Shown here: piece after piece, positions 26,752-57,456 of the stretch
How positions within the stretch are numbered: the first letter of the stretch is position 1
Layout: every line of letters begins with the position of its first letter
Assembly (NCBI GenBank): GCA_000989195.1
Contig: LBOA01000001.1
Span: 5,312-69,311, forward strand
DNA length: 64,000 bases
Source: a candidate division TM6 bacterium GW2011_GWF2_30_66
GTDB lineage: Bacteria; Babelota; Babeliae; Babelales; Vermiphilaceae
Direction of reading: 5' to 3'
Program-made: the position numbers and the translations under genes
Notes under the pieces: model-generated
The model's database searches: none
The model's input: the letters and a program-made list of their open reading frames with translations, nothing else
What the model was told of the DNA's origin: nothing

Positions 26752-27199
26752 CCCGTTCGCCCTGAGTTAAGCGAAGGGTCTAGAGACTTTGTCCCTAATT
26801 TTCGATTTATTTTTTTCATTAGACAATTCTTTCAACAAATCAATCTCATCATTAATCAAAGCTTCTTTCTTTTTTCTAGACCAACCCTTAATTTGCTGCT
26901 CTGCTTCTATAGCCTCACCTCTTGATCCAACTGTATCGCTAAAAACAACTTCAACAGGACGCCTTTTGTACGTATAACATGTTCTGATTAATCCCTGCTT
27001 GTGAGCACTAATCCTAGCTTAGATATTATCAGTGTAACCAGTATAATAAGAGCCGTCACTGCATCTTAAAATATAAACATAAAAATCAAGCATGCTAACT
27101 TGTACTTCCACGATAAAAATTATTTTCAAAATTTTACAAATACAAGCTAAATATTCTTGCAAAATCTCTGGACCCTTCGCTTAACTCAGGGCGAACGGG
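26752..27199 (-). mobile_element. 448-bp cassette: GIY-YIG gene bounded by perfect 29-bp terminal inverted repeats
   Basis: 26752-26780 CCCGTTCGCCCTGAGTTAAGCGAAGGGTC and 27171-27199 GACCCTTCGCTTAACTCAGGGCGAACGGG are exact reverse complements. Confidence 0.7.
26767..27093 (-). pseudogene. GIY-YIG (YhbQ/UPF0213, URI-domain) nuclease gene with one in-frame TAA
   Basis: MLDFYVYILRCSDGSYYTGYTDNI*ARISAHKQG...RRPVEVVFSDTVGSRGEAIEAEQQIKGWSRKKKEALIN...SRPFA*. The TAA at 27019-27021 sits where family members usually have Glu. The terminal stop lies inside the left inverted repeat. Confidence 0.8.
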
Positions 27200-42706: not shown

Positions 42707-42745
42707 GTCCTTCGTCAAGCTCGGGATGCTCGTAATCCTTCAACA
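42707..42745 (-). repeat. Diverged palindromic-element half-site about 30 nt downstream of tRNA-Thr(GGT)
   Basis: GTCCTTCGTCAAGCTCGGGATGCTCGTAATCCTTCAAC is nearly identical to the module at 43188-43225 and 43261-43298. It is related to the right arm at 55764-55792. Confidence 0.6.
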
Positions 42746-42776
42746 CATCAAGCTATTCAACAACTATCAAATAACC

Positions 42777-42852
42777 TGGAGCCCGCGACCGGATTTGAAC
42801 CGGTGACCTCTTCCTTACCAAGGAAGTGCTCTGCCAACTGAGCTACGTGGGC
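42777..42852 (-). tRNA. tRNA-Thr (anticodon GGT), CCA encoded
   Basis: Anticodon stem-loop CTTCC-TTGGTAA-GGAAG, T-arm ACCGGTTCAAATCCGGT; one A:C mismatch in the acceptor stem. Confidence 0.88.
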
Positions 42853-43152
42853 GGCAATTACACTCTTTCCTTTCAATAGATTAATTTAAAAAAAGGAAAA
42901 AGACAAATTTATTTTAAAAAATCATTTGCATTAGTGCTCTTTGTATTTTTAGACCTAAGAATAAAAATACAAAAAAATCACCAGAAATTGCGCCTAAAGC
43001 TAAAAAATCTCATTAAGAGCTTAACATTAATTACCCAAAAAATATCTTTATATAATATTAATTAAATTATAGACAAAAAACAAGTATTTTATTATAAAAA
43101 CACCCATTTTACAAGAATAAGACAAGATTTATATATACGGCAAAAAACCAAG

Positions 43153-43334
43153 CTTCGCATATCATCCAAATAAACAAATATGGAGCTGTCCTTCGTCAAG
43201 CTCAGGATGCTCGGAATACCTTCAACTTCGCATATCATTCAAATAAACAAATATGGAGCTGTCCTTCGTCAAGCTCAGGATGCTCGGAATACCTTCAACT
43301 TCGCATATCATTCAAATAAACAAATATGGAGCTG
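43153..43334 (-). repeat. 73-bp tandem repeat, about 2.5 units, abutting and overlapping the 3' end of tRNA-Thr(TGT)
   Basis: Units 43153-43225 and 43226-43298 differ at one base. The partial third unit 43299-43334 runs into the tRNA. Each unit contains TGGAGCTG (the tRNA 3' end including CCA) plus an element half-site. Confidence 0.9.
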
Positions 43335-51829: not shown

Positions 51830-51858
51830 CCCGTTCGCCCTGAGTTAATCGAAGGGTC
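51830..51858 (+). repeat. Solo copy of the 29-nt element terminus
   Basis: CCCGTTCGCCCTGAGTTAATCGAAGGGTC matches the terminus at 26752-26780 at 28/29 positions. No inverted partner lies within the 250-bp intergenic region. Confidence 0.7.
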
Positions 51859-55642: not shown

Positions 55643-55792
55643 TACCCGTTCGCCCTGAGCCTAACGAAGGGTTGTAAATCATACCAAACTTTGATAAAAA
55701 TTTGTGCATGTCTTTGTAAAAAAATTAAATACTTAGCAAAAAAATGTTTGGCAGGAAAACATATCCTTCGACAAGCTCAGGACGAACGGGTA
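55643..55792. mobile_element. 150-bp ORF-less inverted-repeat element (MITE-like) between tdk and radA
   Basis: Left arm TACCCGTTCGCCCTGAGCCTAACGAAGGG, right arm TCCTTCGACAAGCTCAGGACGAACGGGTA. The outer 10 nt pair perfectly, the inner parts are diverged, and the core is AT-rich. Confidence 0.6.
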
Positions 55793-57298: not shown

Positions 57299-57456
57299 CC
57301 CGTTCTACCTGAGTTAATCGAAGGGTCGCGAGATTAACATTTTTTCGCAACAATATTTTCGTAGAAAAAAACTTTAAAAAATTTATTTTTTTATTAAAAC
57401 AAAAATAAATTTTAAATAAAGTCTCAGAACCCTTCGCTTAACTCAGGGCGAACGGG
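57299..57456 (+). mobile_element. 158-bp ORF-less deletion derivative of the GIY-YIG cassette, between radA and the CPBP gene
   Basis: Arms are CCCGTTCTACCTGAGTTAATCGAAGGGTC and ACCCTTCGCTTAACTCAGGGCGAACGGG. The internal ends match both ends of 26752-27199, including a remnant of the last codons, KVSEPFA*. Confidence 0.65.

Follow-up and report, generated by a model that had tools for sequence, protein, structure and literature searches.

An intergenic inverted doublet of a hairpin repeat downstream of radA in a TM6 bacterium, and its putative association with a small GIY-YIG nuclease

We identified a 158-bp element (57299-57456) in the intergenic region following radA in the window, that is, the entire 64,000-nt stretch of DNA analyzed from a candidate division TM6 bacterium. 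The element starts 57 nt past the radA stop codon and is separated from the following gene by 146 nt; both genes, as well as the element as described here, are on the + strand. The host is a draft genome of 1.11 Mb with 30.5% G+C in 53 contigs. The element is bounded by two inverted arms and there is no ORF within 57299-57456, as expected from the original prediction that the nuclease body present in a related cassette is missing here. That cassette (26752..27199, - strand) carries a GIY-YIG gene between arms that are perfect over 29 nt and continue to about 42 nt. The window also contains a second gene-less pair of arms, of mixed subtypes, upstream of radA (55645..55790) and a solo arm of the same family (51830..51858, + strand, 1 mismatch).

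The arms of the 158-bp element are real, far beyond chance. The two ends, 57299-57327 and 57428-57456, differ from the cassette arm GACCCTTCGCTTAACTCAGGGCGAACGGG at 3 and 1 positions, respectively, and dinucleotide shuffles of the window gave 0 matches to the cassette arm. Compared with each other, the left and right arms differ at 3/28 positions (4/29 over 29 nt), which agrees with the three mismatches originally reported for the inverted repeat, and the identity noted between the right arm and that of the cassette holds over 57429-57456 (28/28).

From the outside inward, an arm consists of a 5'-CCCGTTCG box, a hairpin of the form CCCTGAG-N5-CGAAGGG, and an inward extension of the form TCNAGNGAYTT. 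The hairpin contains four Watson-Crick pairs, a tandem G.A/A.G and a closing G-C pair. In the 158-bp element, the left arm reads in this way on the + strand and its partner on the - strand. In the left arm, the outer box (CCCGTTCT, 57299..57306) is mutated in the last base of the family consensus (…TTCT), and in the hairpin core (ACCTGAG-TTAAT-CGAAGGG, 57307..57325) the first stem pair is broken, with an A opposite a G. The inward extension of this arm (TCGCGAGATTAAC, 57326..57338) follows the family pattern. In the right arm, both the outer box (reverse complement CCCGTTCG, 57449..57456) and the hairpin core (reverse complement CCCTGAG-TTAAG-CGAAGGG, 57430..57448) are intact, and its extension (reverse complement TTCTGAGACTTTAT) lies at 57416..57429. 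Because the box and first stem pair of its left arm are mutated, this copy is probably decaying. Between the extensions is an AT-rich core with 12% G+C (57339..57415, - strand). The whole element folds into one long hairpin in single-stranded DNA (z -8.9 and -8.6 on the two strands). When the spacer downstream of radA was scanned for promoters and terminators, nothing above shuffles was returned inside the element. A possible promoter-like TTGnTT-17-TTTAAA motif can be seen by eye in the core that the element shares with other copies; such motifs are common at 12% G+C.

The stem shows extensive covariation. We collected 53 distinct arms from this genome and its relatives, picked by the outer box and the GAG...CGA frame only. 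The outer box is invariant or nearly so among them, and the four inner pairs of the stem take the forms CCCT/AGGG, TCCT/AGGA, CCCC/GGGG, TCCC/GGGA, TACT/AGTA, TGGT/ACCA and TGTT/AACA. All of the variable stem pairs (4/4) change on both sides, and 98.9% of the cells pair; at pair 9-27 the sole unpaired cell is the left arm of the 158-bp element. There are 32 doubly compensated cells where 8.6 are expected, a number that 0/500 shuffles reach, and slid controls of the stem covariation collapse. The arm is a directional, structure-constrained hairpin repeat.

The genome-wide census that the original prediction proposed identified 50 arms with the outer box. Twenty of these form ten inward-facing pairs, three of which are gene-bearing and seven gene-less, and the remaining 30 arms are unpaired. 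The gene-less pairs measure 146, 158, 154, 179, 320, 149 and 164 bp, with 6/7 falling within 146-179 bp. There is no target-site duplication at the 158-bp element, nor at 8/10 pairs overall, and the other two pairs have only chance matches of 1-2 nt at their flanks. The four gene-less copies that share a core (the 158-bp element and copies on contigs C3, C26 and C33) are all intergenic, and other copies of the family are found within long ORFs. A pair of arms on contig C16 (19280-19599) is within a 328-aa ORF, and a stretch resembling the short elements, identified by a profile search with them (contig C10, 30769-30910), is within a 790-aa ORF; both are apparently translated. Translated arms explain recurrent spurious peptides in annotation (…PFDKLRANG…, …VRPELVEG…).

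Hairpins of this type are also found inside one another. Seven arms of different subtypes (C12 604; C26 21449; C33 5819, 6005, 8338 and 14663; C44 529) contain, at the identical internal position between CTC and AGGG, a nested arm-like hairpin module of 33 nt, CCAGCCTTCGCTAAAAGCTATGGCGGACACGGC, as if one hairpin had been inserted site-specifically into another. On contig C31 (7362-7582), three arms in the same orientation form a 96-bp tandem array. At 42708-43280 of the window (C1 48019-48591) and on contig C10 (51013-51158) there are tandem copies of a variant hairpin whose outer box differs (CCGAGCA-TCCTGAGCYTGACGAAGGA) and which is followed by a tRNA T-arm-like sequence (CGGTTCAAATCC).

Three of the arm pairs enclose a small gene. 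In the window cassette its ORF is interrupted by an in-frame TAA (27019-27021, + strand), and the gene-bearing pair on contig C44 is partly masked. An intact copy on contig C48 (5393-5701) encodes 103 aa and matches PF01541 at 6e-16 over positions 2-76 of the 78 in the model. Pfam assigns the protein between the arms the GIY-YIG nuclease domain PF01541 alone, as a single-domain protein. No NCBIfam family matches it, and its best relatives of solved structure (PDB) are UPF0213 proteins. Inward-facing arms flank the gene in five Dependentiae genomes, this one included. A second type of small GIY-YIG protein (MHYVYLIKS...GRAFAKKRFW) is encoded without arms at three places, C6 17838-18053, C26 2052-2255 and C21 13847-14002; the C6 and C26 copies adjoin tRNA-like sequence, and the C21 copy has an in-frame TAA.

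The 158-bp element was originally predicted to be an internal-deletion derivative of the 26752-27199 cassette, based on similarity extending inward from both arms. The letters are as stated: AAAGTCTCAGAACCCTTCGCTTAA translates on the + strand to KVSEPFA*, corresponding to DKVSRPFA* at the end of the cassette ORF, and both GCAACAATATTT in the element and its counterpart GCAAGAATATTT in the cassette are found. With the 29-nt arms removed and dinucleotide shuffles as the reference, the two sides score z=2.0 (p=0.057) and z=1.0 (p=0.20) in the proposed orientation, and the flipped orientation falls below zero. This weak excess arises because the arm extension supplies the similarity. The matching GAGACTTT block falls inside TCNAGNGAYTT, an 11-13 nt extension that the window cassette has at each of its ends (TCTAGAGACTTTG, TCCAGAGATTTTG), as do many solo arms. 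Since the extension is common to all of these, the orientation of the element relative to the cassette rests on 2-3 nucleotides. With 40-nt arms removed, the 78-nt interior is no more similar to the 70 nt inside each end of the window cassette than shuffles are (z=0.15 and 0.60), and the same is true in comparison with the intact C48 cassette (z=-0.25 and -0.28). Judged by real AT-rich DNA (3000 windows of this genome with <=20% G+C), the comparison with the window cassette gives p=0.49 and 0.35. What had been read as a sign of descent from the cassette is therefore the arm extension, and past 40 nt (p 0.35-0.5) the sub-terminal similarity is no better than the AT-rich controls suggested with the prediction itself.

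The interior does match those of other gene-less copies. It is similar to C3 13629-13782 (z 4.3) and to C33 5886-6049 (z 4.2), with empirical p 0.0003-0.005, and the other gene-less interiors are likewise similar to one another (C3 vs C26 z 5.7; C3 vs C33 z 6.6). These matches hold in one orientation and are not significant when flipped. Comparisons of the 158-bp element with C26 and of C26 with C33 are not significant. The element therefore belongs to a lineage of gene-less doublets with a ~75-nt AT-rich core. It descends from an older unit that was already gene-less, and is not a fresh deletion of the 26752-27199 cassette, an origin that is unsupported. For the window this corrects the original prediction, in that the element is a member of the family rather than a deletion product of the neighbouring cassette.

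We searched for related elements around radA in other genomes. Among the radA loci of 19 relatives, arms are found near radA only in the sister species, whose RadA is 82% identical, so the element is not a fixed feature of this site among distant relatives. The sister species has an element upstream of radA at the same offset as 55645..55790, whose arms share ~78% identity and whose interior is unalignable. Additionally, it has an element ~70 nt downstream of radA that is longer and has a different arm subtype, beyond which the gene order differs. At this second element (locus L002, 2887-3205), the inverted repeat reaches ~34 nt outside the hairpin arms and synteny breaks immediately after it. 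The site of the gene-less C26 copy lacks the element in the sister species, where ~38 unaligned nt separate the same two genes compared with 297 nt here, and the intergenic DNA is too diverged for placing boundaries. The flanks of the C3 copy are on two different contigs of the sister species. An empty site with nucleotide-exact boundaries was not found in the sister species at the C3, C26 or radA-downstream sites.

The hairpin core is present in 52/151 genomes of the phylum, at counts ranging from 0 to 140 (0-66 inside one genus), and a reversed-pattern control across the same 151 genomes gives about 0. The surveyed genomes are drafts or MAGs, and these counts come from a narrow arm pattern that misses other arm subtypes. 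At least five arms and a close homologue of the GIY-YIG protein occur together in 29 genomes; 12 of the 41 arm-rich genomes lack a close homologue, 20 genomes have the gene and few pattern-matching arms, and 90 have neither (odds ratio 10.9, p 2.6e-9, uncorrected for phylogeny). Given this association and the flanking of the gene by arms, the hairpin repeat is physically and statistically linked to the small GIY-YIG gene. The family is dynamic rather than static, as originally proposed, with 50 arms in this genome, 0-140 across the phylum, the C26 site vacant in the sister species, and a module nested in seven arms. One genome (G056, loci L208-L216) provided nine sampled doublets of 112-116 bp. 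Their arms are near-identical, each a self-complementary two-tier hairpin, and the ~27-nt spacers are unrelated, so the arms are conserved independently of the intervening DNA.

Exact copies of the box-plus-hairpin motif also occur outside of the phylum, among the matches listed, in Sphingomonadales, Burkholderiales, Chloroflexota, cyanobacteria, Methylococcales, Moraxella, Dadabacteria and others. The genome of Altererythrobacter fulvus has these arms on both sides of a gene whose 94-aa GIY-YIG product shares 48% identity with the protein of the TM6 genome.

A comparable association has been described for Ssn, a group of single-domain GIY-YIG nucleases acting on single-stranded DNA, the genes for which are flanked by directional, genome-dispersed hairpin repeats known as NTS/SRM (Chenal et al. 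2025, PMC11893778). The plan of SsnA/NTS is a 5' box, a 7-nt stem, a short loop and a 7-nt stem, with the gene flanked by the repeats (PMC11893778). The published SRM search pattern has 0 matches on the five arms of the window, each taken with 20 nt of flank at either end, and 1 match in the whole TM6 genome compared with 0.8 in shuffles. Separate small GIY-YIG genes with true SRM/NTS-like flanking repeats are found in the same Sphingomonas and Altererythrobacter genomes that carry the arms described here. Using these SRM-flanked paralogues as stand-ins for Ssn, the protein of the TM6 genome has <=33% identity to them or no BLAST hit. Such values, set against 48% identity to the arm-flanked protein and best PDB matches among UPF0213 proteins, point to the arm-flanked protein forming a sister clade to Ssn. 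The presence of SRM/NTS-type repeats and the studied arms in the same genomes indicates that two GIY-YIG-plus-hairpin systems can coexist. At L190 (Sphingomonas gilva) and other alphaproteobacterial loci the two kinds of repeat occur together, even at the same gene.

We consider the 158-bp element to be a non-autonomous inverted doublet of the directional hairpin repeat, which would be the cognate site of the small single-domain GIY-YIG nuclease. We place the probability of this reading at roughly 0.6. By analogy with SsnA and its NTS, the nuclease may recognise the folded hairpin together with its 5' box in single-stranded DNA and cut nearby. An inverted doublet would then present one cleavable arm on whichever strand is exposed. 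The arms might be kept through selection or through nuclease-stimulated repair or gene conversion templated on other copies, while the interiors drift. The G056 doublets, with their constant length and unrelated spacers, fit poorly with simple copying of the whole unit.

Three other explanations have to be considered. An internal-deletion MITE, retaining both termini and the sub-terminal leader and ORF end of a GIY-YIG cassette and mobilised in trans by the protein of the cassette, would account for the arms shared with the cassette, including the identical right arm, for the KVSEPFA*/DKVSRPFA* and GCAAnAATATTT matches that adjoin the arms, and for the weak excess in the proposed orientation (z 2.0 and 1.0); rapidly drifting interiors could also have erased the similarity of an old derivative. 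However, the matching block is the arm extension, which both cassette ends and solo arms possess, and beyond 40 nt the element resembles neither the window cassette (z 0.15/0.60 against shuffles, p 0.49/0.35 against AT-rich DNA) nor the intact C48 cassette. Its interior instead matches other gene-less copies, 8/10 pairs lack target-site duplications with 1-2 nt chance matches in the remaining two, and Pfam finds the nuclease domain alone, all of which makes this origin unlikely. It is just as improbable that the element is not a unit, and that two independently gained hairpin repeats face each other by chance across ordinary intergenic DNA. While 30/50 arms are unpaired, the near-identical arms of the G056 doublets enclose unrelated spacers, and the hairpin module inserts alone into existing arms, a chance arrangement does not explain the significant similarity of the interior to those of C3 and C33 in one orientation only, the clustering of 6/7 gene-less pairs at 146-179 bp, or the fixed 112-116 bp length of the G056 doublets.

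Slightly less probable still is a mainly RNA-level role in the radA transcript, as a stem-loop that stabilises or terminates it and is comparable to Correia elements or to the REP/BIME elements mentioned in PMC11893778; the link to the nuclease would then be incidental. The position 57 nt after the radA stop codon on the strand shared by both flanking genes, the very stable long hairpin, and the lack of any predicted canonical intrinsic terminator elsewhere in the spacer are consistent with such a role. However, there is no T-run after the stem, arms have both orientations and are located within ORFs as well as upstream of genes, and the exact sequence, not the fold alone, is conserved across phyla together with the nuclease gene. 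The element also belongs to no Rfam family; sub-threshold matches to plant miRNA precursors were the only ones obtained and reflect generic long hairpins.

Extending the reading of the 158-bp element as a doublet of nuclease target sites to the whole family is more tentative, and we regard it as somewhat less than an even chance. The combination of CCCGTTCG-CCCTGAG-N5-CGAAGGG with a UPF0213-like GIY-YIG gene may represent a second nuclease-plus-cognate-hairpin system that parallels Ssn/NTS and extends from Dependentiae to Alphaproteobacteria (for the hairpin alone, to further lineages). The gene-less doublets would be its dispersed, strand-symmetric targets, with arms held near-constant by selection or nuclease-driven gene conversion and interiors decaying, making it a GIY-YIG counterpart of REPIN-RAYT. 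If this holds, Ssn is no one-off, and a sister GIY-YIG clade with its own sequence-conserved hairpin is spread over distant phyla, with expansions in genomes that are reduced and host-associated. Such a clade might provide another specificity with which single-stranded DNA can be cut at defined sites, and would be a natural system for studying the multiplication of hairpin repeats in the absence of a transposase. The difference between arms that are conserved and interiors that decay can be measured directly.

In its organization the 158-bp element resembles REPIN and NIME units, and the system to which it belongs is probably a sister to Ssn. REPINs and the RAYT genes were reportedly described by Bertels and Rainey in 2011 and by Nunvar in 2010. 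The features in common are non-autonomous doublets of inverted hairpin repeats, a long fold, and a presumed partner gene that is itself flanked by the repeat. However, the partner here is a hydrolytic GIY-YIG nuclease and not an HUH/Y1 (IS200/IS605-type) transposase. The HUH/Y1 transposases of the IS200/IS605 type can cut and rejoin single-stranded DNA, and GIY-YIG enzymes hydrolyse DNA and are not, to our knowledge, able to rejoin it.

The neisserial intergenic mosaic elements (NIMEs) are intergenic units of 50-150 bp bounded by inverted dRS3/NTS hairpin repeats. The likeness is in the short intergenic units between inverted copies of a hairpin repeat, whereas the hairpin sequence, the bacterial phylum and probably the protein clade are distinct. 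A subset of the dRS3 repeats, the longer NTS form, is the target of a GIY-YIG nuclease (PMC11893778). With classical MITEs the element shares terminal inverted repeats in common with the cassette (1 and 3 mismatches) and is short, gene-less, palindromic and multi-copy. However, it has no target-site duplications, no transposase partner and no internal homology to the cassettes beyond the repeats. The original description of a non-autonomous, MITE-like derivative can thus be retained in part: the element is ORF-less and non-autonomous with termini common to the cassettes, but without target-site duplications and with a nuclease as partner it fits the term MITE-like poorly. Rickettsia palindromic elements are also short, gene-less, palindromic and multi-copy, and are located inside ORFs, as are other copies of the present family but not the intergenic 158-bp copy.

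A close parallel is provided by Ssn. The arms described here fail the published SRM motif, and the hairpin and probably also the protein clade are distinct. However, in both systems a single-domain GIY-YIG gene product of ~100 aa is encoded between inverted, directional hairpin repeats, copies of the repeat number tens to hundreds and are scattered, with a patchy distribution that is expanded in host-associated bacteria, and the number of repeats is tied to the gene across genomes (here with the odds ratio of 10.9, uncorrected for phylogeny).
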